This document shows, piece by piece, positions 1 through 13,187 of a stretch of 64,000 bases of DNA. Position 1 is the stretch's first letter. Each line of letters begins with the position of its first letter. Below the pieces are notes generated by a model, which worked only from the letters and a program-made list of their open reading frames with translations, searched no databases and was not told the origin of the DNA. A program made the translations under genes and the position numbers. The DNA is from Desulfatiglandales bacterium (GTDB lineage: Bacteria > Desulfobacterota > DSM-4660 > Desulfatiglandales > Desulfatiglandaceae): assembly GCA_963662465.1 (NCBI GenBank), contig OY759599.1:1600001-1664000 (forward strand), given 5' to 3'.

Positions 1-362
1 ATATCGCTGTCCCCAACAGAATCAGTTTCATAATAGCACCCTCCCAAATTGGCTTTTTTAAAACGGCTTTCGGCTAAATGGTTGAATTAATCTTGTTTTG
101 CGGCATGCCTCTGTTTTTCAATATTTCCCGCTTCATTATCAGCTTATTAAATAACGTAATAACGTTCAGAAACCCAATCCAGCATGATATCATGTATATT
201 GCAGTTCCTCTACTCCGTGACGCACAAGGGGAATTTCGCTATGTCCGCCACTCATAAAAAAGGCCTTACCAAAGTGCGGAGGAGATTGGCTGGTCGTGAA
301 TTGACGGTCCGTATCTGGCCTTCAAATATGTTGGGTTTCCAATAGAAAACACAAAGTATTGG

Positions 363-770
363 CACCATCAAAAACCTTCAATATGCCTTACTTCTTTGAT
401 GAGAATATCGCCTCGAATTTGAAAAAATTCCAATCTCACCTTAACGCATTTCCTATGTCAAAACCACAAAATATCGTAAAGCTCAAAAAAACTGTGATAT
501 CATAAAATTCAGATGGCTTGAACGAACGTTGTTATCATGCCATCTCTCAGGGCCGGCCGCTCTGGGTATTAATTGAGAAACTTCCAACTATCTTAAACCT
601 CTGAAATTTTGTGATTAACCTTTAATACCTGTACTTTTCGGATACTTGGCGATTGTTGGAGGAATATGTAGGTGTTACGTGATCAAAAAGATGCGGCTCC
701 CACCCTCAGGCCGCCACCCTCCCGATGAGGATATCACAACCGTTCGGTTCTGATAAATCGGTTTTAAAGC
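363..770. repeat. Dispersed non-coding repeat, most complete copy (modules A+B+C)
   Basis: Shares AAATATCGTAAAG, TGATATCAT, TTGAAC(G/A)AACGTTG, ATGCCATCT and ATTGAGAA in the same order and spacing with 3343-3650 and 8031-8177; 572-661 matches 1306-1395 at 83/90 positions. Confidence 0.85.
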
Positions 771-927
771 ATGACTTTGAGATGGCCCTTCCACCAACTT
801 TTTGCCCAACAGACTTATCAGGAAACATGACCAAATATCATGCCGATATCTGAGCTATGGGCTCTTTTCAATAAGAGTTCTCACATTATTGAATTTCTAA
901 TATGTCAAACGTTGAATGCTAAGACAA

Positions 928-1218
928 TTAGCTTGGACCTGAACCCGTTCCGCAACCAGCAGTAACTAATTTGCCGTAGGCGGGGCCGTTTATACAACCA
1001 GTAGAATTCAGGTCGTATGGTAATGTTTGACTAGCACCTGCTCCATCAGTACACCCACGGGGGGTAATTCCGAGCCCAGATGCATCTGCTCCCCACCAAC
1101 ATGTGATACCTCCGACCTCCAGAGCATCATTCCCACCTGTAGCTCCGCTTCCATCTGCACAACACGCACTGCTTGCCATGCTTCCGATATGGCGTAATCG
1201 TGGTTTATCATATTTCAT
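928..1218 (-). CDS. Putative RiPP precursor peptide (SynChlorMet ScmA-like, Cys-x-x-Gly repeats), 96 aa
   Basis: AGGAGG RBS upstream of ATG; N-terminal YDKPRL (YxxPxL-type leader motif); five CxxG units (CADG, CWWG, CTDG, CING, CGTG) in a Gly/Ala/Ser/Thr-rich core. Confidence 0.7.
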   Translation of the reverse strand: MKYDKPRLRHIGSMASSACCADGSGATGGNDALEVGGITCWWGADASGLGITPRGCTDGAGASQTLPYDLNSTGCINGPAYGKLVTAGCGTGSGPS

Positions 1219-1300
1219 TTCGTTTCCTCCTGTTTAGTAAAAAGAACATGCTTAGCATTTTTTTGCATTTCGCGATGTCGGTTCAAATGGCAGAAAAAAA

Positions 1301-1532
1301 GGTATATTGAGAAACTTCCAACTATCTTAAACCCCTAAAATCTTGTGATTAACCTTTAATACCTGTACATTTTGGATACTTGGTGGTTGTTGGAGTAGTC
1401 CCAACCTGATGTGATCAGAAAACTGTCAATTTCATGCACCTTTTAGCCCTCAGTCCGCTCCCATGCCAACGATGATATCACAGGTATTCGACTGCGAAAA
1501 ATCGGCTGAGATATCCATTCCGACCGAACAGC
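1301..1532. repeat. Dispersed non-coding repeat, modules B+C, upstream of the precursor gene
   Basis: 1306-1395 is near-identical to 572-661; 1410-1532 aligns with 5790-5911 (AAAACTGT, CAGTCCG, GATGATATCACA, CATTCCGACCG). Confidence 0.85.
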
Positions 1533-1669
1533 ATCCTGAAATCAACAAAACTGGTGGGGAGGTGGTGACCCCGTGCCAGAAGCCACCTGTGATTGATTTG
1601 ATTGGCGACAGGCCAATCCTGCCGTCAAAAGGACCGTGTAATCCTTAATCGTCCCTCCCCATATTGATT

Positions 1670-3268
1670 TTATGGCTGTATGGTCAGCATTTTCATAGCA
1701 AGCGATCCATCTGTTACTATGGGCGCTTTGATAAAGGTCTTATTTGCACTTTGCACCGAAAACTTGGAATCCCATCCCCCCTCAAGCGTTAAGGTCTTTG
1801 ACAGACCGAGTCGGAATATTTCGTTGTACGTCCCCTCGGCCAACCGTATGGAAGCGGTTGCTGACGCGACATTGATGGCAGCCTGTATAGAGGTGTAGCA
1901 AGGGTCGTTGCCGTCACATGTGTCGTCGGTGTTGTTGACATATACAACTGACGGGGCTGACCCGAGATTAAACGTGATTGTGTGATAGGAGGAATTTCTA
2001 TAATTATTCCCATCTGCATCGATCACATTAACTCTCCATTTATAAGAACTCCCTTTAGGCAGATTTAAGGCTTCATTGGGAGTAAAGGAAGTCGCTGTGC
2101 TTGAAGGAGAGTCGAACCACCGCATTTGTTGAGTGTTATCGACAATACGAATACTGTAAAGATAGGTTCCATCACCAGCATCCCCTTGGACTCTTGACCA
2201 GCTGAATGTAGGTTTGTCTGTATCCAGATAGGCATTGTCTACTGGGATACGGGAGTCTTCCGAAAATTCGGGGATCGGGTTATAGGTGTAGCTTCGGGTG
2301 TCGGAATCAGTCCTCCCTGAACTGTCTTTGATTTCGACTGTATATGTTCCACTTGGAATTGACGCTGGCGGGTCAAACGATGTGACGTTTGCATTATAAG
2401 CCGGGAAAGTGAATTGATAGTAGCGCCCATTAAGGTCGTAGACGACATTATCGGGGCCGGTGAATCGAAAATAGTCGATATCCCAAGGTGCGACGTTGAT
2501 GGCCCGTGAGTAGATAAAGTTTATCAAATTTGAAGTCGATATTGACAGAATGCCTTTCAGATTTATTTCGGGTGCGGCCTTTGTGCCGGTGTAAAAAAGA
2601 GCTTCGCTTTCACGACAGTTCTGGCCGACGATATCCCACACACGCGCCTTATAACGGTAAGCAGTGTCAGCTTGCAGCATTTCTTTAGAAAACGTGAACG
2701 AAGGGATCGTCATAAAGGGGCTGCTGTACCAGATGGCCTTTCCGTCATAGTCTCGGATTTGTGCCTGGTAGCAATAGTTCCCTGTAACCGGGGAAAAGCT
2801 GAAGGTAGGGGTGGGGGTAGTTGATACCGCATAGGTTTTGTCTGCCGGAACTAGAGACGTTGCCGTCGGGATACTGTCATTATAGGTGAACTCCCGAACC
2901 ACCGAGGCGGTTCGACCAATGCTGTCTGTAACCGTCAAGGTATAGCTGCCGTTGTTCAGAACGCCGGGCTCCACATGCGCGTAATAAAGTCCATATTGCT
3001 GAAAAGATTGTCGGGAGGTCAGATTATAAGGACCGGATGGCCCGGTTGCCATAAAAGAGGCCACATCGACCGGTGATGGGCCGCTGATGATTGCAAAAAA
3101 AATGGTTGTGATCGAATCGTCCGCTGCGTGAAAAGAGAAAACCTTTGCGTCTTGGAATTGCGGCGCTGGATAGGCGTACACCTTGGTTATACTCAACGAA
3201 AAGATTGCAAGAGAAAGCAGAACAATGAATCTTCCGTTTTTTTTAACTCTGGTAACCATGAATTTCAT
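1670..3268 (-). CDS. Secreted beta-sandwich repeat protein with internal duplication and a C-terminal DUF1565-like domain
   Basis: Start moved to ATG 3268 (AGGAGG RBS); signal peptide ending VYA; two repeats (TGP..GxYT..DS.GRT..TYN and PTFS.S.V.G..W..SP..FT); C-terminus CDGNDPCYTSIQAAI..EGTYNE..TLEGGWD. Confidence 0.75.
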   Translation of the reverse strand: MKFMVTRVKKNGRFIVLLSLAIFSLSITKVYAYPAPQFQDAKVFSFHAADDSITTIFFAIISGPSPVDVASFMATGPSGPYNLTSRQSFQQYGLYYAHVEPGVLNNGSYTLTVTDSIGRTASVVREFTYNDSIPTATSLVPADKTYAVSTTPTPTFSFSPVTGNYCYQAQIRDYDGKAIWYSSPFMTIPSFTFSKEMLQADTAYRYKARVWDIVGQNCRESEALFYTGTKAAPEINLKGILSISTSNLINFIYSRAINVAPWDIDYFRFTGPDNVVYDLNGRYYQFTFPAYNANVTSFDPPASIPSGTYTVEIKDSSGRTDSDTRSYTYNPIPEFSEDSRIPVDNAYLDTDKPTFSWSRVQGDAGDGTYLYSIRIVDNTQQMRWFDSPSSTATSFTPNEALNLPKGSSYKWRVNVIDADGNNYRNSSYHTITFNLGSAPSVVYVNNTDDTCDGNDPCYTSIQAAINVASATASIRLAEGTYNEIFRLGLSKTLTLEGGWDSKFSVQSANKTFIKAPIVTDGSLAMKMLTIQP

Positions 3269-3342
3269 TTTTTCCCTCCTGAAGTAGTACGTTGATGTTA
3301 AAACCATCAGTGACATATCTAATTGATATGCAGATGAATTCA

Positions 3343-3650
3343 TACTATCAAAAAGCGGTGATAAGCCTTGCGTTCTTTGGTAAGAATATTGCCTCCAGTT
3401 TAAAAAATTCCAGCCTCACCTCGATTCATTTCTTATCCCAAAACCCAAATATCGTAAAGAACGGAAAAGCTGTGATATCATCGAATCCGAGGTTTTGAAC
3501 GAACGTTGAGATTGATGCCATCTATCAAGGGTGGTCGCTCTGGGTATATATTGAGAATACATGGAATTCCTTCTTAAGTCAAAAACTTGGTATATCCCTT
3601 AATTACCTGTACATTTTGGATACTTGGCAGTTGTTGGAGGTATTGCCAGT
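3343..3650. repeat. Dispersed non-coding repeat, modules A+B
   Basis: Collinear with 363-662, including TACCTGTACATTTTGGATACTTGG and TTGTTGGAG. Confidence 0.85.
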
Positions 3651-3840
3651 TTCTCCAAAAATATGGGAACCACAATATATGGTATGACCGTCCAATATTG
3701 GAAAAGCGTTGTTGTCGGGTTTGAGAACTGCTTAGTGAAACCAGGACTTACTCTCCCACAACGGAAGGCTGCCAGAGGTATTGTTCTGTGGCCTAAAAAT
3801 TTCTTGACTGAAGTTCAATATTTTGATGCCAGGCAACCAT

Positions 3841-3864
3841 GTCCGTAATTCCCCCTTTACGGAC
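3841..3864. terminator. Hairpin downstream of the caspase gene, possible terminator
   Basis: GTCCGTAA-8nt-TTACGGAC perfect 8-bp stem; no clear U-tract. Confidence 0.3.
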
Positions 3865-3934
3865 ATTAAAACTGTTTTCCATGACTTTCCCCTGTATCCC
3901 TTCTGTCAAATGATCAAAACGTCAAATAACCCAA

Positions 3935-5245
3935 TTATCTATCGCCCCGGGAACGCACTGCAAACGCCCTGCCGGCGTCGGTATTGCTGCGGTTGTTCCA
4001 AAGCCTGCTGCCGTGGTAGAAGAGGAAGATATTGGCCTTGGAAGAACCCCTCGTATCGCCTGACCAAACCCACCAACCGGTGGTCTTCAACAAATGCGTC
4101 ATATTCCGGTCCCCTTTTCTCTTTTCATAGAGGGTGTTCAACTCATCCGTCGTTGGCATCCGCCAGTCACCGCCTAGACTCTGAACCCACGATCGAGCTT
4201 CATTCCAATTCGTATTTTTGTCCGGTCCCACCTTCCATTCAAGTCCGGTGCGGGTATCCTTGACGTTGCCGTTGGCATAGGCTACATAAATTCCATCACG
4301 GTTGATTACGTTGGGGGTGGACGATGTTGGGCGGGAAGAGGACGGCTTTGAAGGGACACTTGCTACCTCGATCCTCTGGTTTTGGGACTCTGTCTGTCTT
4401 CTTTCAAATTCCGCCTTCGCCTGTTCAAACTCCCGGCGCTCTTGTTCCAATCTGGCTTGCTCTTCCTTGAAGCGGTTATCAGTCCCTTGTTTGGTAAAAT
4501 AGAAATTTCCCCTTAGTGATGTTGATTCCCATGGTATCTGTTTGTTCCCTGAACTGTTCATTACCATTGAACGTACACCTTGGAACATCTCTATTATCGT
4601 AATATTGGGAGTAGTAATGTGCTGTAACAACGCAGATGTGTATGGACTGTTATCACCTCTACCATCCAGCGCCGTCTTCCCAGGAGCGGTTGAGTATGCT
4701 ATCAGCGACCCTGACGGAGCGTTCATAAAGGCCAGACCTGACCCCTGGGAGCCTCGCCTCCAACTCCGTTCAAAAGGGTTGTCACGACAAGCATCCAGAA
4801 TCACGATATTGGTTCTACTTCCTGCGCTCTCCATTTTTCCCAGCACCCTGTCCGCTCTAACACAATCATACTCAGCATCGTTTGCGCTATCCAGTTTCGC
4901 ATCCACAGGGAGAAGATAATTGTGTCCATTGACCTGGACCCCATGACCGGCGTAGAAGAATAGGCCGACATCTTTATCTTTCAGGTTCTGGCCGAATTTG
5001 TCCATGGATCTTTTCATGGTCTTCTGGGAGCAGTCCTCATATTTCATGACGGTGAAACCCAGGCCCTCCAGTGCCTTCTTAATGGCCCTGACATCGTTGA
5101 CTGGGTTTGGAAGACTGCCACCATGGGTGTAGTGGCTGTTCCCGATCAGCAGGGCGAGGCGTTGTTCTTGTTTGGCCGACAGGTCACCGGCAAACAGCAG
5201 TGAAAGGGCCATCGCACAGATGCATGTGATTAGAAATTTTTTCAT
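3935..5245 (-). CDS. Secreted caspase-family (peptidase C14) protein with a coiled-coil linker and C-terminal DUF1566 (Lcl, C-type-lectin-fold) domain
   Basis: Signal peptide; RLALLIGNSHY, FFYAGHG (His), ILDACRDNPF (Cys); C-terminal VKDTRTGLEW..NWNEA..WRMPTTDEL..WVWS..AFAVRS. Confidence 0.85.
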   Translation of the reverse strand: MKKFLITCICAMALSLLFAGDLSAKQEQRLALLIGNSHYTHGGSLPNPVNDVRAIKKALEGLGFTVMKYEDCSQKTMKRSMDKFGQNLKDKDVGLFFYAGHGVQVNGHNYLLPVDAKLDSANDAEYDCVRADRVLGKMESAGSRTNIVILDACRDNPFERSWRRGSQGSGLAFMNAPSGSLIAYSTAPGKTALDGRGDNSPYTSALLQHITTPNITIIEMFQGVRSMVMNSSGNKQIPWESTSLRGNFYFTKQGTDNRFKEEQARLEQERREFEQAKAEFERRQTESQNQRIEVASVPSKPSSSRPTSSTPNVINRDGIYVAYANGNVKDTRTGLEWKVGPDKNTNWNEARSWVQSLGGDWRMPTTDELNTLYEKRKGDRNMTHLLKTTGWWVWSGDTRGSSKANIFLFYHGSRLWNNRSNTDAGRAFAVRSRGDR

Positions 5246-5620
5246 GGCATACCCATATAAATCCTCAAAATATCCATTGCTTCGGGAGCAATGTTCTTAT
5301 GACGTCTAGTCAGCTTTCCCGTATTCGATTTTTTACTTCCGTTGATATGGCAAAAAGTTTTTTTCTGTGACGAACCAATGTGCGGAGGGTACGATAAATG
5401 CCGGATTGCGCAGGAGAACATTTGCCCCGCCGGTTGAGGAGCAAGGGCTCACTCTCCTCCCCAAAATCTATCCCTCGGAAAGGTACCAGATGTTGTGGTC
5501 AGCTTTTTCATCGCCAACCTGTTATAGATTGAGAGTATATGTAAAAACGAACACCCTAACAACCTTGTGATATCAATTGCATATTTGTAGGCGTCCTCAG
5601 ATTACAGATTCTTAATCGGG

Positions 5621-5740
5621 AGATTTTACCCCCACAACATATAGCGGTCAACCCATTTTCCGCTTATCCGGTCACAGAAAAAGATTACGTGCATTAACCC
5701 TCTTAGCACATCCGCCAAAACCGTGCAAGACTGGCAGATC
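5621..5740. repeat. Dispersed non-coding repeat, module D (copy 1)
   Basis: TTTCCGCTTATCCGGTCACAGAAAA (5657-5681) is identical to 8296-8320; CCACAACATA is also shared. Confidence 0.8.
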
Positions 5741-5766
5741 AATTGTTGAAGTCAAGTCTGAGATAT

Positions 5767-5911
5767 GTTGGAGATATTGCCGGTCTTATGTTATCCAAAA
5801 AACTGTTAATTCCATGCCTCTTTAGAACCCCAGTCCGGTCCCTACCAGTGATGATATCACAACCATTTGGCTGCCAGAAATAGTTTGAGATAACATTCCG
5901 ACCGGAATAGC
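5767..5911. repeat. Dispersed non-coding repeat, end of module B plus module C
   Basis: GTTGGAG followed by alignment to 1410-1532. Confidence 0.7.
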
Positions 5912-6273
5912 GAAATTGAACTTCAAAGAGCACAAAGCATTTTAAGCCAAAATTTGAAGATGGTTTTTATAGCAGATTTCAGCGATTTCCAGATATCACC
6001 TCGGTTTCAAAATACTGCCCGTAAATTCTAACGTTTGGGCTTCTTAAATGACGAAGTCAATATCACTAGCGATTTGAATGCAGAGGGGCTTAGAAAGAGT
6101 CACCCTTCCAGAGCTAGTCATACTCATTCTACTGATATCTCCCTTCGGATTTATAGGCTTGAGAAAGAAAAGATAATCGTGATTTTCCATTTTCAATAAG
6201 ACCTTTATATATCGCTGCCATTTCCCGTTATGCCGAGGAAGGGAGTCATGAAATGAAAGAATCCCCTTTGCTT

Positions 6274-6933
6274 CTACATTGAGTCTTCCTCAGAGTTTTG
6301 GGGCAACAGTTTGGTATACTCCTGATCACTAAACGCACTTTTCCATTCATTCAGGCCCTGCTGAATCAGTCCAAAAACCGCATTATAGCTGATAAAGTCA
6401 TATTTCTTCTGAAGAAAATGAATTGCATCCTTCTTGGGTATTGGTTTTCGATTATTAAGTGGTTGTGAATGTGACGTACCCATGATTAATTCGATATATT
6501 CCCCGAATACACGATCTTTGTTGATTGGCTCTTTGTGTTGCCAGCCGAGCAGCCGTTTTACTTCATTCAGGCCATGCGTTTCATTATCAGCGGCATCAAA
6601 TCTGCGGTGGGCTTCCTTAAAAATGCCAGTTAATCCCTTCAAAGCTATTGCGGTTTCAGTAAGCCTATCACTGCAATTTACCAGCATCTTAAAAACGAGA
6701 AGCAGATCTCCAAGATCTTTTTTTGAAATCTTCAATGCAACGGGGTCTTCAGATGTTTCTGTTACTGCCTCTTTTAGAATCTTATCAACGGAATCTTGCG
6801 TTTCGATTCCACTGACAAGCTTTTCGATCAGATTGGGAATTTCAGATTTTGAAAGAGTTCGGCATTTTTTGCCATTAATAGCCTTTGACATTAGCCTTTC
6901 AAGAAATGAATCCATTTCTACTTTCTCGCTCAA
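6274..6933 (-). CDS. Hypothetical protein (219 aa), possibly of mobile-element origin
   Basis: Long ORF with protein-like composition in an AT-rich region; no recognised motif; start uncertain. Confidence 0.55.
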   Translation of the reverse strand: MSEKVEMDSFLERLMSKAINGKKCRTLSKSEIPNLIEKLVSGIETQDSVDKILKEAVTETSEDPVALKISKKDLGDLLLVFKMLVNCSDRLTETAIALKGLTGIFKEAHRRFDAADNETHGLNEVKRLLGWQHKEPINKDRVFGEYIELIMGTSHSQPLNNRKPIPKKDAIHFLQKKYDFISYNAVFGLIQQGLNEWKSAFSDQEYTKLLPQNSEEDSM

Positions 6934-6989
6934 TGGTTTTTTCTATACTTTTGATGCGTCTTAGAAGCCAGGAAAATGGTGGAACAAAA

Positions 6990-7223
6990 CATGCCTATCC
7001 ATTCAACCAGTTGATGTTTTGGGGTATGATCCTGCGCATGTCAGTTTACCCCCGCCAACTCCGTTGCAGTTTTAGCCCCTTTTCCCTGATGAGACGGTCT
7101 TCACCCGCCATTTGAAGCTATCCGGTAGCCCTTTGGGTGCGGGAATGCCCGTCCTGTGGTCAAGGTCGGTGATCTCTCGTATCCTGCCGAACCAGGTGAA
7201 CCTGTGCTAATCGGATAGGCATG
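6990..7223. other. Candidate structured RNA or miniature element
   Basis: 11-bp perfect inverted repeat CATGCCTATCC (6990-7000) / GGATAGGCATG (7213-7223); nested stems 7118-7129/7206-7218, 7139-7143/7148-7152, 7166-7169/7187-7190 and CAGG-TGAA-CCTG. Confidence 0.4.
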
Positions 7224-7307
7224 GCATGACCAAAATCAACAACAAGATTTAGGTGCCACATCTTAAGAAACAAGTCTTTTGAGATAGTAAACTGTTGTGT
7301 GGAACAT

Positions 7308-7850
7308 TCAACCATCTGATCCCTTCAGTTTTGAAAGCACAATCAATCCGTCTTTCAAATCGATTTTGAACCTATCACCCTCTTCAAATCCACTTTCAAT
7401 CAAATGATTCATTGATATTTGAATGCCGTTGTCTTTGAGCTTAACTGGGGATGTTTCTCTATAAAGTCCCTCAATTTCAATGTATTTCTTGAGCTTATAA
7501 ACCAAAAATGCGTATCTTTCCCGTAGGTTGCTGAGCTTGATACCTGCTTCTTGACAGATCCTTTCAGCACGTTTGTATTTCTGAATTAGAAATAGCAGTT
7601 GTCTGTCAGATTGGGTGAAATCTTCCCCAAATAGCGGACTAGTTTCTTGATTTCCATCGTTAGGGTTTCGTGAATCCGAATTGTAAGTCCTACCCTGGGC
7701 ATTTGAAGCTCCCTCAAAACCTACACTTTCTCCCAATTTCCCGGTTGCATCGCTTTCAGGAACCACCTTCGCTAAGCCCTCATTCCAGTTCCTCAGTGCT
7801 TCCAAATCACTCTCAACAGCAGCTTGTTCTTTCTGATTGACCTTTTCCAT
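7308..7850 (-). CDS. Hypothetical protein with a C-terminal AbrB/SymE-like swapped-hairpin domain
   Basis: GGAGG RBS; C-terminus IQISMNHLIESGFEEGDRFKIDLKDGLIVL resembles the AbrB fold. Confidence 0.55.
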   Translation of the reverse strand: MEKVNQKEQAAVESDLEALRNWNEGLAKVVPESDATGKLGESVGFEGASNAQGRTYNSDSRNPNDGNQETSPLFGEDFTQSDRQLLFLIQKYKRAERICQEAGIKLSNLRERYAFLVYKLKKYIEIEGLYRETSPVKLKDNGIQISMNHLIESGFEEGDRFKIDLKDGLIVLSKLKGSDG

Positions 7851-8030
7851 GTGAAGCCTCCATTAAGGTAACGTACCCATTATCCTCAATTATTAGATAT
7901 TATAATAGAAATTTCAATAGATAAAACCGGTTTCTTCCAAGCTTTTGCGAGTAATGCAAAAAAACCATCCTAGTTTGGGATATTTCCGAAAGGCATGAAA
8001 GCTCAGATTCCGAACCTCAGCCCGAACACA

Positions 8031-8177
8031 TAGCCTGACCTTAACTCATTTCTTACCCCAAAACCCAAAATATCGTAAAGGTCAAAAAAGCTATGATATC
8101 ATCAAATCAGAGGGTTTGAACAAACGTTGAGGTTTATGCCATCTTTGAGGGCCAGTCGCAACATAAATTGAGAATAT
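8031..8177. repeat. Dispersed non-coding repeat, module A (copy 3)
   Basis: Same ordered motifs as 436-579 and 3416-3557. Confidence 0.85.
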
Positions 8178-8259
8178 TCCCAAAAAAACAGTGTCTCTGA
8201 AGTGTTAATATGCCCTTACATATCTGAAATTACCTTCACGTTCCTGGACCTAAACCGTA

Positions 8260-8380
8260 AGATCCTACCACCACAACATATTGTGGACAATTCGGTTTCC
8301 GCTTATCCGGTCACAGAAAAGGAGTACGTACATTAAGTCAGCATCCCACATCCGTATATATTATTCAAGACCGGAATCTC
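8260..8380. repeat. Dispersed non-coding repeat, module D (copy 2), with an NrdR-box-like palindrome
   Basis: CCACAACATATTGTGG at 8271-8286; 25-bp identity with 5657-5681. Confidence 0.8.
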
Positions 8381-8466
8381 TAATATTCACTGTTTGTCCA
8401 TAAAATATATCAGATGGGTGGCATAGGAAGATTTCACTATGGCCACAAGCCGGGACAATTCAGGAA

Positions 8467-8596
8467 GCGCTCGTTCCCACGCACTGCGGGGGAATGAAAA
8501 TGTGACCCGCCGGGGCACAATGAGTTCCTCAGTGACGTTCGTAGTGACGCCGTGAGGCGTTTTCCCCGGCAATGCCCTCACGGGCACACTACAAAC
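8467..8596. repeat. Two REP-like palindromes
   Basis: TTCCCACGCA/TGCGGGGGAA hairpin (8474-8494); GTAG-type inverted repeat GTTCGTAGTGACGCCGTGAGG ... CCTCACGGGCACACTACAAAC (8537-8596). Confidence 0.6.
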
Positions 8597-8754
8597 CTCT
8601 CCCTCAGTCCCGACACAATAATATCCCAAAGGAAACGATAAACCCGCGAACGTCTTCAATTCGGCGGTGCCGGCATCGTCTTGAACCATGATTAAAAAGG
8701 ATGATCGGATTCCTTGATTATGACAAGGTTCATCGATGCGCCGGAGTGGTTTTT

Positions 8755-8925
8755 CTGGGAGGGAGAACAATATGCCCTCCCTTTCCAAACGCAATAGGAG
8801 ACCCCTGCAAACCATGTCCTTGAGATGACCGTTGGGTTGAACCCAGTTCCAACTCCTGCATATTTTTTTGAAAGAGCATACCTCCCATCCTCTGGGTGAT
8901 TTATCCTCAGCTTTCGGATGAAGGA
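8755..8925 (-). pseudogene. N-terminal fragment of a DUF4338 (DruA-like, IS-associated) protein
   Basis: FIRKLRINHPEDGRYALSKK / frameshift in a T run / ICRSWNWVQPNGHLKDMVCRGLLLRLEREG. Confidence 0.65.
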
Positions 8926-9062
8926 AAAAATGATACTGACGATCTTTTTGTTCAAAAATAGGTAGAAAGAACTCTTGGCATGGCGGCGGGTATCACCGAC
9001 CATGTATGGACTTTTAGAGAACTATTAACCGCTAAATTTTGCAATGATCCTTAATCAAAGTA

Positions 9063-9458
9063 CTAGCGGAAGAGCACCCGAACATGAGGATAATCGATAA
9101 TTTTTTGATCAGTCGTAAGGAGCACCATATTGTGGTGACGGGATGAAGCCACAATAATCTGGTCAGCCGGATCCTTATGGAATGTGCCGGGGAGGATAGT
9201 TGATTCCAGTGAAATACTTATGGAAAGCGGCAAAATTTCAATGAATGGCTTCCGGGCGGCCTTGGCCAGCCAATCCCTGATGGGAATAGAGAGATTTAAT
9301 TTGTTTCGTGACACTTTTTTGGCTACTTCCCAAGGACTGATAGCGGATAAGTAGAAAGGATAATTGTTTACATCCAAGATTATTGGAGAAATTTGGGCAG
9401 GAACGAGATCAGGATTCTCCACCATTCGAATCCAAATATTGGTATCTAAGAGATATTT
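9063..9458 (-). CDS. vapC: VapC/PIN-domain toxin
   Basis: LLDTNIWI..LSAISPWEVAKK..HKDPADQIIVA..LLTTD PIN motifs; start MKYLLD overlaps the antitoxin stop. Confidence 0.9.
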   Translation of the reverse strand, partial: KYLLDTNIWIRMVENPDLVPAQISPIILDVNNYPFYLSAISPWEVAKKVSRNKLNLSIPIRDWLAKAARKPFIEILPLSISISLESTILPGTFHKDPADQIIVASSRHHNMVLLTTDQKIIDYPHVRVLFR

Positions 9459-9694
9459 CATTTGCATGCATCCCAATCATCTTCACCAAGGGGATCATCC
9501 CAGTCTGGAGCAAAAGAAACAGTGCCCTGCAAGCAGCCAAGAAATTCAGCAGGATCAGTCTTGCCGGTTTCCGGAGGTTGAATAATGGCTATTACCTTGC
9601 CACGTCTGGTTACCTCAATGGTCTCTCGAAGCTCTTCCACGTCCCGAAACATCCTTGTGCATTTGGCCTTAAATTCACTAACCGCAACTTTCAT
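9458..9694 (-). CDS. Phd/YefM-family antitoxin
   Basis: VSEFKAKC..IEVTRRGKVIAII; GAGG RBS; translationally coupled to vapC. Confidence 0.9.
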   Translation of the reverse strand: MKVAVSEFKAKCTRMFRDVEELRETIEVTRRGKVIAIIQPPETGKTDPAEFLGCLQGTVSFAPDWDDPLGEDDWDACK

Positions 9695-9765
9695 GATTAT
9701 ACCTCTAGGCTACTTGACTATTTACAAGGTCAAGTATAATGTTTTTAAGACAGATGAGTCAAGGA

Positions 9766-9871
9766 CAGATTTGTTTCAGATGAAGATTACGGATCTTATG
9801 CGGGTTGGCTGAAGGAGTATTCAAAGAAATTCAAGGTGGAGATCCATGCGTGGGTGATGATGACCAATCAC
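9766..9871 (+). pseudogene. REP-associated tyrosine (Y1/RAYT) transposase fragment
   Basis: My translation from 9779 gives DEDYGSYAGWLKEYSKKFKVEIHAWVMMTNH, truncated at the HxH motif. Confidence 0.7.
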
Positions 9872-10043
9872 TACTTATGTGGAACTCCACATAAAATGTG
9901 ATTGGGCATGAGCGCCCACCGAAAACACTCTGTTTCTGTTTCGGAAATAACCTTCCCCAACCGCTCAATAAAAATGTCTCGGTGAGGGGCCGGAGAGTTT
10001 TTATAAAGACATCTTTCGCGTTGAGCCGGGACATTTTCTCACT

Positions 10044-10620
10044 TTGGAACAGGGTCAGGTTCGCACCCGGCGGTATCATCGTTTCGATCCCAACCACCGC
10101 ATTGTGTTCAAAAACGACGACGATTACGTGGAAGCAGCCCGTGAAATGCTGGACAAGGCGGTTGCCTGCCGGCTCCGCAGTGCCGGTGGTATAGCGTCTC
10201 ACCTCAGTTCGGGCCTGGACAGTTCCACGGTTGCCGCCACGGCCGCACGTTTGTTGGGGACACAGGGCAAGAGGCTGACGGCCTTCACTTCAGTGCCGAG
10301 GGAAGGCTTTGACGAGCCCGGTTCCCAAGGGCCGGCACGGGATGAAGGACCGGCCGCCGCGGCGTTGGCGGCGAAGTTTTCTAATATTGACCACATTCTG
10401 TTTCGGCCGGGAAACCGGACCCCGGTGGATGGTCTGCGGGAAAAGGTGGAGAGATTCGACCGGGCCCCCTTAAATTCCTGCAATCATGTGTGGATCGACG
10501 GCATTCATGCCGATGCCGCCCGGCGAGGGGCCCGAGTTTTGCCGACCGGGCAGATGGGGAATATGACCATTTCCTATGACGGGCGCCCCCGTTTGGCATC
10601 TCTCTTGCGCTGGGGGCCCT
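10044..10620 (+). pseudogene. Asparagine synthetase-like (lasso cyclase-type) internal fragment
   Basis: AVACRLRS..IASHLSSGLDSSTVAATAA..LTAFTSVP..TGQMGNMTISYDG; both termini missing. Confidence 0.75.
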
Positions 10621-10659
10621 GGGAGGCGGTTTTGGGAAAAAGCGGTGTTTTTGCGTTCA

Positions 10660-10940
10660 CCCGGGTGTAGGCGTCATGCACCTTCATGAAAAGAGTTTCG
10701 TCCGCATCGGCAGCCAGTTTTTCGTATACCTCCGGTCGAAGCCTATCGATCTTATCGGCGTTCATGTCAGAGGCTTCAAGCCCACTTCGTCGTCGAAGAT
10801 GCCCCTGGCACTGGCAATGGGGGTTCTGTGAAGGTTGTTGATGTCCGCCGACTTTTCCTGCTCTCCCCGCAGGTTGGTGAGGAACACCCGGAACCAGGTG
10901 TTTCCGGATTTGGGGTACGATGCCGGCCAGATAATCCCAC
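10660..10940 (-). pseudogene. Sulfotransferase N-terminal fragment
   Basis: IIWPASYPKSGNTWFRVFL (5'-PSB loop), then after a frameshift RLRPEVYE..FMKVHDAYT; truncated. Confidence 0.75.
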
Positions 10941-11492
10941 CCAGACCTTCCAGAAAACGGGGACGATAGGTATGATTGAGGAGCGGTTCAATCCGTTCCA
11001 TGCCTGTCAGTTCCGAAACCTCGAAATCATCCGTGTTGGTATCCTTAAGGAGGAAAACCGATCGGGCCGGCGTGGGGATTGCGGAGGTATGGTCAAAGGG
11101 GACGAAATACTTCTGGAAGTCCTGAGCGAGCCGCACCCGAATGAGGCCCATATCATCTTTTTCAAGCTTCTTCAGTGCATCGGCCCACAGCTTGAGCCTG
11201 GGAAAACCGGGAATGACCTTTGCGCTACCATTTTCATCCGCGGTTACCGCGCACACATCATCCGCCAAAAGTGGATAGCCCCGTTTTTGAAATCCCGCGG
11301 GTAGGGCCGATTTTCCGATACTGGAGGGTCCCATGAACAGGACCGCCTCGCCTCCACCTGAACGGCGCTGGCGTGAAGGGGCAGGATGTTCCGCTGGTGC
11401 AGGAGCGCCCCCATGGCGGAACCCATCAGGAAAAGGAGCACCTCCTCATCCGTTGCGCCGAGATCCCGATCGATGAGGATGTTGGTTCCTTT
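10940..11492 (-). pseudogene. HPr-kinase-related (lasso-peptide kinase-like) fragment
   Basis: LLHQRNILPLHASAV / frameshift / GPSSIGKS..LLADDVC..PGFPRLKLWADAL; fused in frame to the sulfotransferase fragment. Confidence 0.75.
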
Positions 11493-11547
11493 GAAAACAT
11501 GCCATATCTCTCAAAAGCCACAATCCTGCAAGACGAGTAGAACTACT

Positions 11548-11731
11548 GTAAGAAAAAAGATTGGTGAACTGGGTCTTGACATTGAAATCGAGGTAAATGG
11601 GGGCATCAACCATGAAACCATTCGAAGTGTCTCTTCCCGCCGGCGCTGATGTTTTTGTGACCGGATCGGCTATTTATCGCGGCAAAAACCATGCGGATAG
11701 CATTAAGGCGTTGAGACGGAATATAGGGTGA
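11548..11731 (+). pseudogene. rpe: Ribulose-phosphate 3-epimerase C-terminal fragment
   Basis: LDIEIEVNGGINHETI / frameshift / AGADVFVTGSAIY; catalytic Asp reads Asn. Confidence 0.7.
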
Positions 11732-11738
11732 TCCCGGC

Positions 11739-13187
11739 CTACTTTCGCCAGTACTCGGGCGCCAGCAGAACAATCACCGTATAAATCTCCAGACGCCCCA
11801 GGAGCATGCAGGCAATCAACACCCATTTGCCGGCCGTGGGAATTTCCAGGTAGTTTCGGATGGGACCGACCACGCCAAAGCCGGGGCCGATATTGCCGAT
11901 AGATGCGGCCACGGATGATAAGGCGGAGATAAAGTCAAGTCCCAGGCCCGCCATGATCAGGGAAGCCACGACAAAAAGACCCATATAAAGGAAAAAGAAT
12001 CCCCATATGCTGCTGAGAACATCCGTGGAAACGGGTTGCCCGCCGAGCTTAACCGTGGTTACCGCATGGGGATGAATAATACGGAAGACCTGTTGATAAG
12101 CATGTTTCACCATCAGTATGATCCGCACGATTTTTATGCCGCCCCCCGTTGAACCCGCCATGGCCCCTAAAAACATGCAGACCAGGAGAATCAGCTGGGA
12201 AAGGGCCGGCCATTTTTCATAATCAGCGGATACAAACCCGGTTGTGGTGATGATGGAGCTTATCTGAAAGGCGGCAAACCGGAAGGCCTGAAAAAGGGAT
12301 TTATAAACAACGCCGTAAATATCCAGGGTCACCAGCAGGATGAACACGCCCACAATAATCAGGAACACGCGGCACTCCGAGTCCTTGCCGAAGATTTTCA
12401 GGTCGCCTTTGAGCAGTCGGTAGTGAAGAGAAAAGTTGATGCCGGCCAGAAGCATGAAAATTACAATGACAAAATCAAAGTATGTGCTGTTGTATTGGGC
12501 GATGCTGGCGTTTTGGGTTGAAAAGCCGCCTGTGGGCATGGTGCAAAAGGCATGGCAGAAAGAATCAAACAGGCTCATGCCGCCCCCGAAAAGCAGCGCC
12601 ACCTGAACCAGGGTGATGAGAAGATAGATTTTCCAAAGTATCCTGGCGGTTTCAGAGATCCGGGGTTTGAGTTTATCGACGACGGGACTGGGAATTTCAG
12701 CCTTGTACAGCTGCATCCCGCCGATGCCCAGGAATGGAAGAATGGCGATGGAAAGGACAATAATGCCCATGCCGCCCAGCCACTGGGTCAGACTTCTCCA
12801 GAGAAGGATTCCTTCGGGAAGGGACTCGATGTCTGTTATGACGCTGGCGCCCGTTGTGGTAAACCCCGAAATGGACTCGAAACAGGCGTTGGCTATATCC
12901 GTTGTGACGCCGGCAAAGAGATAGGGCAAGGCGCCGACCAATCCCGCCATCACCCATCCCAACGTAACAATGGCAACCCCGTCCCGGTGATTGAGCTGTT
13001 TTTCCTTCTGGCTTTTTGTCAAAGCAAAGGGAATGCCTCCCAGAAGGCATGTCACGGCCATGGCCAGGAGCAGCGGTTTGGTGCACTGGTCATCAAGCAG
13101 GAAAGACACGCCCACTGGAGCTGCCATGGAAAGCCCCAGAAAAAAAACCAAAATACCGGTGAAACGGACGATAATTTGAAAGTTCAT
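11739..13187 (-). CDS. trkH: Trk potassium uptake membrane subunit
   Basis: FESISGFTTTGA, TQWLGGMGII, GSTGGGIK, GNIGPG, MLLGRLEI. Confidence 0.95.
   Translation of the reverse strand: MNFQIIVRFTGILVFFLGLSMAAPVGVSFLLDDQCTKPLLLAMAVTCLLGGIPFALTKSQKEKQLNHRDGVAIVTLGWVMAGLVGALPYLFAGVTTDIANACFESISGFTTTGASVITDIESLPEGILLWRSLTQWLGGMGIIVLSIAILPFLGIGGMQLYKAEIPSPVVDKLKPRISETARILWKIYLLITLVQVALLFGGGMSLFDSFCHAFCTMPTGGFSTQNASIAQYNSTYFDFVIVIFMLLAGINFSLHYRLLKGDLKIFGKDSECRVFLIIVGVFILLVTLDIYGVVYKSLFQAFRFAAFQISSIITTTGFVSADYEKWPALSQLILLVCMFLGAMAGSTGGGIKIVRIILMVKHAYQQVFRIIHPHAVTTVKLGGQPVSTDVLSSIWGFFFLYMGLFVVASLIMAGLGLDFISALSSVAASIGNIGPGFGVVGPIRNYLEIPTAGKWVLIACMLLGRLEIYTVIVLLAPEYWRK

Follow-up and report, generated by a model that had tools for sequence, protein, structure and literature searches.

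A long-spaced ScmA-like RiPP precursor gene, most likely stranded in a Desulfatiglandales genome that has none of the cassette enzymes

Results

The DNA analyzed here, hereafter called the window, is a stretch of 64,000 nucleotides from a Desulfatiglandales bacterium (contig OY759599.1, positions 1,600,001 to 1,664,000). Close to its left end, the minus strand carries an intact open reading frame (ORF), running from position 1218 to 928, that encodes a 96-residue putative ScmA-like precursor peptide with a leader and five CxxG units. An earlier note on this DNA had given this location, which stands, but had left out the strand; the plus-strand frame over the same interval is full of stops. A Shine-Dalgarno sequence, AGGAGG, lies 7 nt 5′ of the ATG (1226 to 1231, minus strand) and corresponds to the strong ribosome-binding site described in that note. 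Residues 3 to 8 (1195 to 1212) form a YxxPxL motif, the predicted RRE-binding site, followed on the same strand by the CxxG units C20-G23 (1150 to 1161), C40-G43 (1090 to 1101), C56-G59 (1042 to 1053), C75-G78 (985 to 996), and C89-G92 (943 to 954). The leader and all five CxxG motifs are therefore present as previously quoted, with intervals of 20, 16, 19, and 14 residues between the five cysteines. Cysteines are found at positions 19, 20, 40, 56, 75, and 89, the sixth one, C19, not being conserved among the homologues described below. At least five CxxG motifs occurred in 124 of 100,000 shuffles of the peptide sequence, and this is the only ORF with that many among the 95,090 six-frame ORFs of up to 150 amino acids (aa) in the genome. 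A search of the peptide against Pfam and NCBIfam returned no match, and neither resource detected an NHLP or Nif11 leader domain in it, whereas the precursors encoded at 6.25 Mb in the same genome do pass such models. The paralogous precursors whose search had been proposed are absent from the genome. AlphaFold2, run with only five sequences, was uninformative (mean pLDDT of 34.7), and the ESM Atlas listed solely unnamed clusters, at 0.90 to 0.91. Promoter and terminator scans did no better than chance and gave no terminator on the gene's own strand, and no RNA sample was listed among the datasets matching it. The gene is unchanged in contigs of two samples from one study.

A phmmer search over 1.84 billion representatives yielded six matches to the peptide, two of which (P0001 and P0002) were left out as long low-complexity repeat proteins. 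The four remaining homologues are unnamed proteins of 97 to 107 aa with 29 to 39% identity to the peptide, each being the sole member of its own cluster. Since Y3, P6, L8, and all five CxxG units are kept at nearly the same spacing in these four remote homologues, we consider them a real small family; the earlier note would have been contradicted by homologues lacking the leader and the CxxG pattern, and all four retain both. Across the five members, the YxxPxL motif is invariant, a glycine occupies position +3 after 25 of 25 core cysteines (a count unaffected by the MAFFT alignment, which offsets the second cysteine of P0005), the third cysteine interval, between units 3 and 4, is always 19 residues, and P79 follows unit 4 without exception. 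Cysteine spacing in the family ranges from 14 to 23 residues with a median of 19, and CW and CxxGP are further conserved features; no hydrophobic signal peptide is conserved. For the one homologue gene with available DNA (locus L031, identical to P0004), identity by codon position is 0.55/0.49/0.39, with third positions the least conserved and different codons used at 20 of the 38 identical residues. The gene is real, and it is protein coding. No maturase gene lies near the L031 homologue within 281 bp upstream and 6.8 kb downstream. A word-based protein search found nothing with the single sequence and the same four homologues only with the alignment, and related loci were found in neither genome_contigs nor viral_contigs (query A2). 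The one match to a P0006 query is a Cys-rich myxococcal sequence and was rejected as a false positive. No family member was detected in 208 other genomes of the order. Across 400 genomes of the phylum, the family drew only four weak matches: two other CxxG peptides, one sequence with internal stops, and one inside a 493-aa frame.

The earlier note had likened the peptide to ScmA, the precursor of the SynChlorMet (Scm) cassette, for which NCBIfam provides models of ScmA (TIGR04252), ScmD (TIGR04248), ScmC (TIGR04249), ScmE (TIGR04250), and ScmF (TIGR04251). The ScmA model search that it had suggested came back empty: TIGR04252 (cutoff, 35 bits) did not match the peptide at E values up to 10 and reached one homologue at an E value of 4.6. 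This model is narrow, and because it passes just one of the nine cassette-linked peptides scanned, cassettes were collected for new profiles. From 32 loci fetched around ScmC-like matches, 25 small cassette peptides were taken at 20 loci with a filter requiring a YxxP leader and at least two CxxG motifs, two filter matches being dropped and two peptides added by hand. A glycine stands at +3 from 113 of 121 cysteines in these peptides, a proportion that partly reflects selection given the leader and CxxG requirements of the filter. A profile of the leader and first CxxG of the 25 cassette peptides, which included no member of the peptide's own family, ranked the peptide first of 103,325 ORFs in the genome (24.5 bits; E value of 1e-4), the next best ORF scoring 12.3 bits. 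With a whole-length cassette profile, the peptide scored 16.6 bits compared to at most 7.9 in 400 shuffles, and all five family members scored above the best of approximately 400 shuffles of their own sequences. In the reverse direction, when a profile of the five-member family was run against the 5,215 ORFs of the 32 loci, the top ranks went to small CxxG peptides.

As in ScmA-like peptides, the first CxxG comes 10 to 16 residues after the YxxP leader, an arrangement invariant in five of five family members, and the core consists of repeated CxxG units. Both groups share a YxxP-type leader, a link of 10 to 12 residues to the first cysteine, C-x-x-G-x-x-A units, a Gly/Ser/Thr-rich core, and reciprocal profile matches, and the unit consensus of the family, C-x-[TSD]-G-x-x-A, matches that of the cassette peptides. 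The period of about ten residues is not found in the family, whose median interval of 19 compares to a cassette median of 10. Among 96 intervals in the 25 cassette peptides, five are at least 15 residues, and the first interval measures 15 to 19 in three of the peptides. The family further differs from ScmA by more aromatic and proline residues between units and by the lack of a TIGR04252 match. Since a leader profile built from cassette peptides only places this peptide ahead of every other ORF in its genome, the sequence comparisons support its assignment as an ScmA-like RiPP precursor, as the earlier note had proposed, in the form of a long-spaced variant of the catalogued class.

ScmC scored over its cutoff in 19 of 401 genomes of the phylum, 7 of 105 of the family, and 3 of 10 congeners. 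The cassette of a congener comprises ScmD, ScmE, ScmF, and ScmC, all over their cutoffs, along with a pair of precursors, a gene resembling a signal peptidase, and an ABC exporter. It sits at three different chromosomal places in three congeners and is thus mobile. One Scm locus (L107; G124:C20) encodes at least three different CxxG precursors, one of which is the closest cassette-linked match to the family; the same locus has an additional radical SAM protein that is extended at its N terminus. Another genome has three long CxxG peptides around a carbamoyltransferase (L029; G276:C142) and its Scm cassette on another contig. No member of the exact family was found beside an Scm cassette. The present gene is not adjacent to scmC, scmD, scmE, or scmF, and neither is its homologue in L031, the one other context seen, as far as that locus reaches; unlike cassette ScmA peptides, the peptide lies outside any cassette in a host without one. 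A literature search whose scope left most subscription journals and bioRxiv supplements outside found no report on Scm chemistry.

The host genome (G000) is a single contig of 8.16 Mb, 100% complete by markers. The statement that the window contains no radical SAM gene was borne out by the ORF listing of positions 1 to 12000 and by the CxxxCxxC radical SAM candidates of the genome, none of which falls inside the window. The wider search for scmC/D/E/F called for in the earlier note, by curated models, tblastn, and custom profiles, was equally negative. The ScmC and ScmD models had no match in the genome, and the best ScmE and ScmF scores (116 and 126 bits; cutoff, 400) belong to the heme enzymes AhbD/AhbC and were rejected. 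tblastn with ScmD, ScmC, and the peptidase of a congener found no trace of them, and custom profiles (built from 18 ScmD, 28 ScmC-like, and 22 peptidase sequences) run against six-frame stop-to-stop translations gave best E values of 0.58, 0.086, and 0.35, respectively. The genome therefore has no ScmC, ScmD, ScmE, ScmF, or cassette peptidase, and this result does not support the earlier suggestion that the host matures the peptide in trans.

Thirteen radical SAM proteins of the genome were scanned, five of which exceeded a curated cutoff: AhbC, AhbD, MftC, a sulfatase maturase, and a Nif11-class maturase, whose tandem neighbor also had its highest score with that model, without reaching the cutoff. 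A tandem radical SAM pair at 1.92 Mb, considered as a candidate maturase, turned out to be AhbC/AhbD. The Nif11-class pair belongs to a complete-looking NHLP/Nif11 RiPP cluster (G000 6241622 to 6255066; L130) comprising the two radical SAM/SPASM enzymes, an HlyD-like gene, two ABC exporter genes, two near-identical NHLP precursors, and one Nif11 precursor. A PqqD-HprK fusion at 3.85 Mb, the only PF05402 match over cutoff in the genome, is encoded together with an NTP_transf_5 nucleotidyltransferase (G000 3852200 to 3855175; L135 9201 to 12176) and followed by two near-identical ORFs of 60 to 67 aa with a YxxP-type motif and no NCBIfam match; this locus is a candidate small RiPP system. A mycofactocin locus (G000 921188 to 942610; L013 and L131) contains a variant MftA, MftB, MftC, MftF, and two extra, unassigned SPASM enzymes. 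Relatives have these two enzymes side by side, but in this genome one lies at each end of the 21-kb block, an arrangement suggestive of a circular permutation. A quick tree placed the SPASM protein at 921188 as the sister of ScmF, on a long branch, and 25 of 209 genomes contain an orthologue of it. Neither an ScmA-like peptide nor ScmD was found in any of the 26 orthologue loci fetched with 1.5-kb flanks, and many of the orthologues' neighbors resemble, by ORF sequence, the MftF glycosyltransferase or a second radical SAM protein of the mycofactocin region. The remaining radical SAM proteins are unassigned and carry no PqqD domain according to Pfam. The other RRE and SPASM proteins of the genome are parts of heme, mycofactocin, sulfatase, or Nif11/NHLP systems or have no family match and no RRE, although they could in principle act on the peptide. 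The earlier note was to be abandoned if the genome held no RRE or radical SAM maturase; because other RiPP maturases do exist, this does not literally apply, but each of them has precursors of its own alongside.

The precursor gene belongs to a gene array, most of whose members look secreted, that is enclosed by two dispersed intergenic elements, A (270 to 664; 20 matches genome-wide) and B (1296 to 1669; 25 matches genome-wide, with a partial copy at 571 to 763). The gene is flanked by copies of a 90-bp direct repeat, at 572 to 661 downstream of it and 1306 to 1395 upstream of it, which are 92% identical to each other; a third, more diverged copy is found near 3549 to 3641. No junction skipping the gene between the 90-bp repeats was seen in contigs of the two samples (one study) that contain it. 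A/B elements occur in the window at 270 to 664, 1296 to 1669, and 3328 to 3642 and at about 20 other places in the genome, with A upstream and B downstream of large, mostly secreted-looking genes in one orientation, and sometimes of transposases. They are found three times near a 280-aa tyrosine recombinase, and A and B have a short inverted motif in common; possibly, they represent a family of cargo cassettes. An integron origin was rejected: folding of the 90-bp repeat did not exceed that of shuffled sequences (z of −0.5 to 1.2), the repeat is not an attC-like hairpin, and the closest match to an integron integrase lies at a distance of more than 1.6 Mb; five such matches over the curated cutoff lie at G000 3287696, 4425408, 4981289, 6133965, and 6792755. 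IS21, IS66, IS91, and IS200 genes are located just left of the window. The GC content at third codon positions (GC3) of the gene is 0.33 compared to a median of 0.59, and it is lower in 1.7% of 2,238 long ORFs, bearing in mind that the gene is short. Positions 1 to 579 of the window are 95% identical to G000 6238949 to 6239525, and a 622-aa gene left of the window, along with its upstream region, is duplicated beside the NHLP cluster (G000 1598163 to 1600579 and 6237018 to 6239525). Farther into the window, broken lasso-cyclase-like and HprK-like remnants (9831 to 11441) adjoin a PIN/Phd toxin-antitoxin pair (9063 to 9694). The flanking direct repeats, IS genes, low GC3, and lack of a family member in the 208 other genomes of the order would all be consistent with a foreign origin, and we infer that the gene arrived horizontally without its enzymes, although later loss of a cassette may account for the same picture.

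Discussion

We regard the following as probable: the gene product is a long-spaced ScmA-like peptide with five cysteines, the gene likely reached this organism by horizontal transfer unaccompanied by its enzymes, and the peptide would stay unmodified here as stranded cargo, given that a complete genome contains none of the Scm cassette enzymes. The intact ORF and ribosome-binding site fit either a recent arrival or a current function and in this respect count against a stranded gene. In a host with a cassette, gene content suggests that the YxxPxL leader would be recognized by the stand-alone RRE protein ScmD, which would thereby deliver the core to two SPASM enzymes, ScmE and ScmF. These would likely join each cysteine sulfur to the alpha carbon of the +3 glycine, producing five small unnested thioether rings with a loss of 2 Da each, and leader removal and export would then fall to the S24/S26-type peptidase and the ABC exporter of the cassette. 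A local thioether acceptor is proposed on the grounds that the +3 glycine is fixed while spacing varies freely; as the exact chemistry, however, a Cys-to-+3-Gly alpha-thioether is a tentative assignment, held with a little less than even confidence. Precedents exist. StsB, an MftC-like SPASM enzyme, acts with the stand-alone RRE protein StsC to form Cys-to-Gly alpha-thioethers (sactionines) on StsA in Streptomyces sparsogenes, which resembles the Scm proposal, but StsA has three links, among Cys2/4/6 and Gly11/13/15, in a short core without CxxG repeats (PMC10288494). Scm terms are absent from the one supplement of that article that was searched. The sactionine rings of streptosactin, a type 2 sactipeptide, are unnested and span four residues, as many as a CxxG unit; it differs in being a two-ring 14-mer under streptococcal quorum control (GggA/GggB), and GggB is ranthisynthase-like, unlike ScmE/F (PMC9389541). 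ScmE and ScmF scored 117 and 96.5 bits on the StsB model (cutoff, 625), no better than on WgkB or AhbD, so the enzyme sequences give no pointer to thioethers.

Several other explanations were weighed against the stranded-cargo reading. Maturation in trans here would fall to a noncognate system, most plausibly the Nif11 pair at 6.25 Mb, which resembles PapB/SCIFF thioether enzymes, adjoins NHLP-type exporters, and lies about 12 kb from the DNA that is 95% identical to window positions 1 to 579, or the PqqD-HprK fusion at 3.85 Mb with its nucleotidyltransferase, the fusion being alone in the genome in passing PF05402. Both systems nevertheless have precursors of their own, those of the Nif11 pair (NHLP and Nif11) with unrelated leaders and those of the fusion in the form of two short candidates, and for the SPASM protein at 921188, all 26 orthologue loci are devoid of ScmD and ScmA-like peptides within 1.5 kb, leaving this explanation improbable. 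The two other CxxG peptides among the weak phylum matches are detached and of other subfamilies, and they do occur in genomes with ScmC and ScmF over cutoff on other contigs, against a background of 19 in 401. Action in trans is thus a reasonable idea for the class, but it does not hold for this genome. A separate maturase type for the long-spaced family, other than ScmE/F, from which both this copy and that of L031 became detached, would account for the five units, the exact 19-residue third interval, and the conserved CW and CxxGP that typical ScmA peptides lack, and other CxxG loci do carry extra tailoring genes, such as the carbamoyltransferase. We think it unlikely, as leader and unit consensus agree with those of cassette peptides whichever way the comparison is run, and a first interval of 15 to 19 residues is seen in three cassette peptides.

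The peptide might also work unmodified, for instance by binding metal through its many thiols or by acting as a decoy for RRE proteins, and the existence of intact copies remote from any enzyme would then be explained: both visible contexts are without maturases, the gene is intact with a strong ribosome-binding site, and the family shows no conserved hydrophobic signal peptide. An invariant RRE-type leader, however, makes most sense for enzyme recruitment. Judged by known motifs, an invariant +3 glycine and an odd cysteine count suit neither CxxC metal sites nor paired disulfides; on balance, a role without modification seems doubtful. That an Scm cassette resides on a replicon missing from the assembly is highly improbable for a one-contig genome that is 100% complete by markers, even though the cassette occupies three chromosomal places in three congeners. 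The peptide has hardly any chance of being a lasso precursor that belongs to the broken cyclase/HprK remnant, located 9 kb from the gene. The YxxPxL motif has been connected with the RRE-dependent leaders of lasso peptides (PMC6784204), and a 208-aa fragment at the remnant matches the lasso cyclase model, but it spans only model positions 212 to 396 of 668. Moreover, in the three members checked, no threonine stands at the expected place, two residues before the core, and the remainder, at 77 to 78 residues with five CxxG units, is far longer than a lasso core, which largely refutes this origin.

Overall, the peptide is a distinct variant, with long spacing, within a catalogued precursor class, and its gene is most likely stranded where the enzymes are missing. 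The SynChlorMet class is widespread among anaerobes, being present in 19 of 401 sampled phylum genomes. A +3 glycine that stays fixed while spacing extends up to approximately 20 residues points to local rings, and the family offers a natural long-spaced test substrate. A bolder reading, which we rate as improbable, is that the family is a free-travelling substrate module, i.e., repeat-bounded cargo that passes from genome to genome separately from its enzymes and would yield a new five-ring peptide wherever a compatible RRE/SPASM pair is available, here possibly one of the Nif11 class; if true, it would represent a natural plug-in diversification of a RiPP class. The present case also cautions against assuming that every orphan precursor undergoes maturation in trans. 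With the enzymes missing from its host, this copy offers poor access to the chemistry, for which the complete cassettes of congeners such as G004 and G007 would be better suited.
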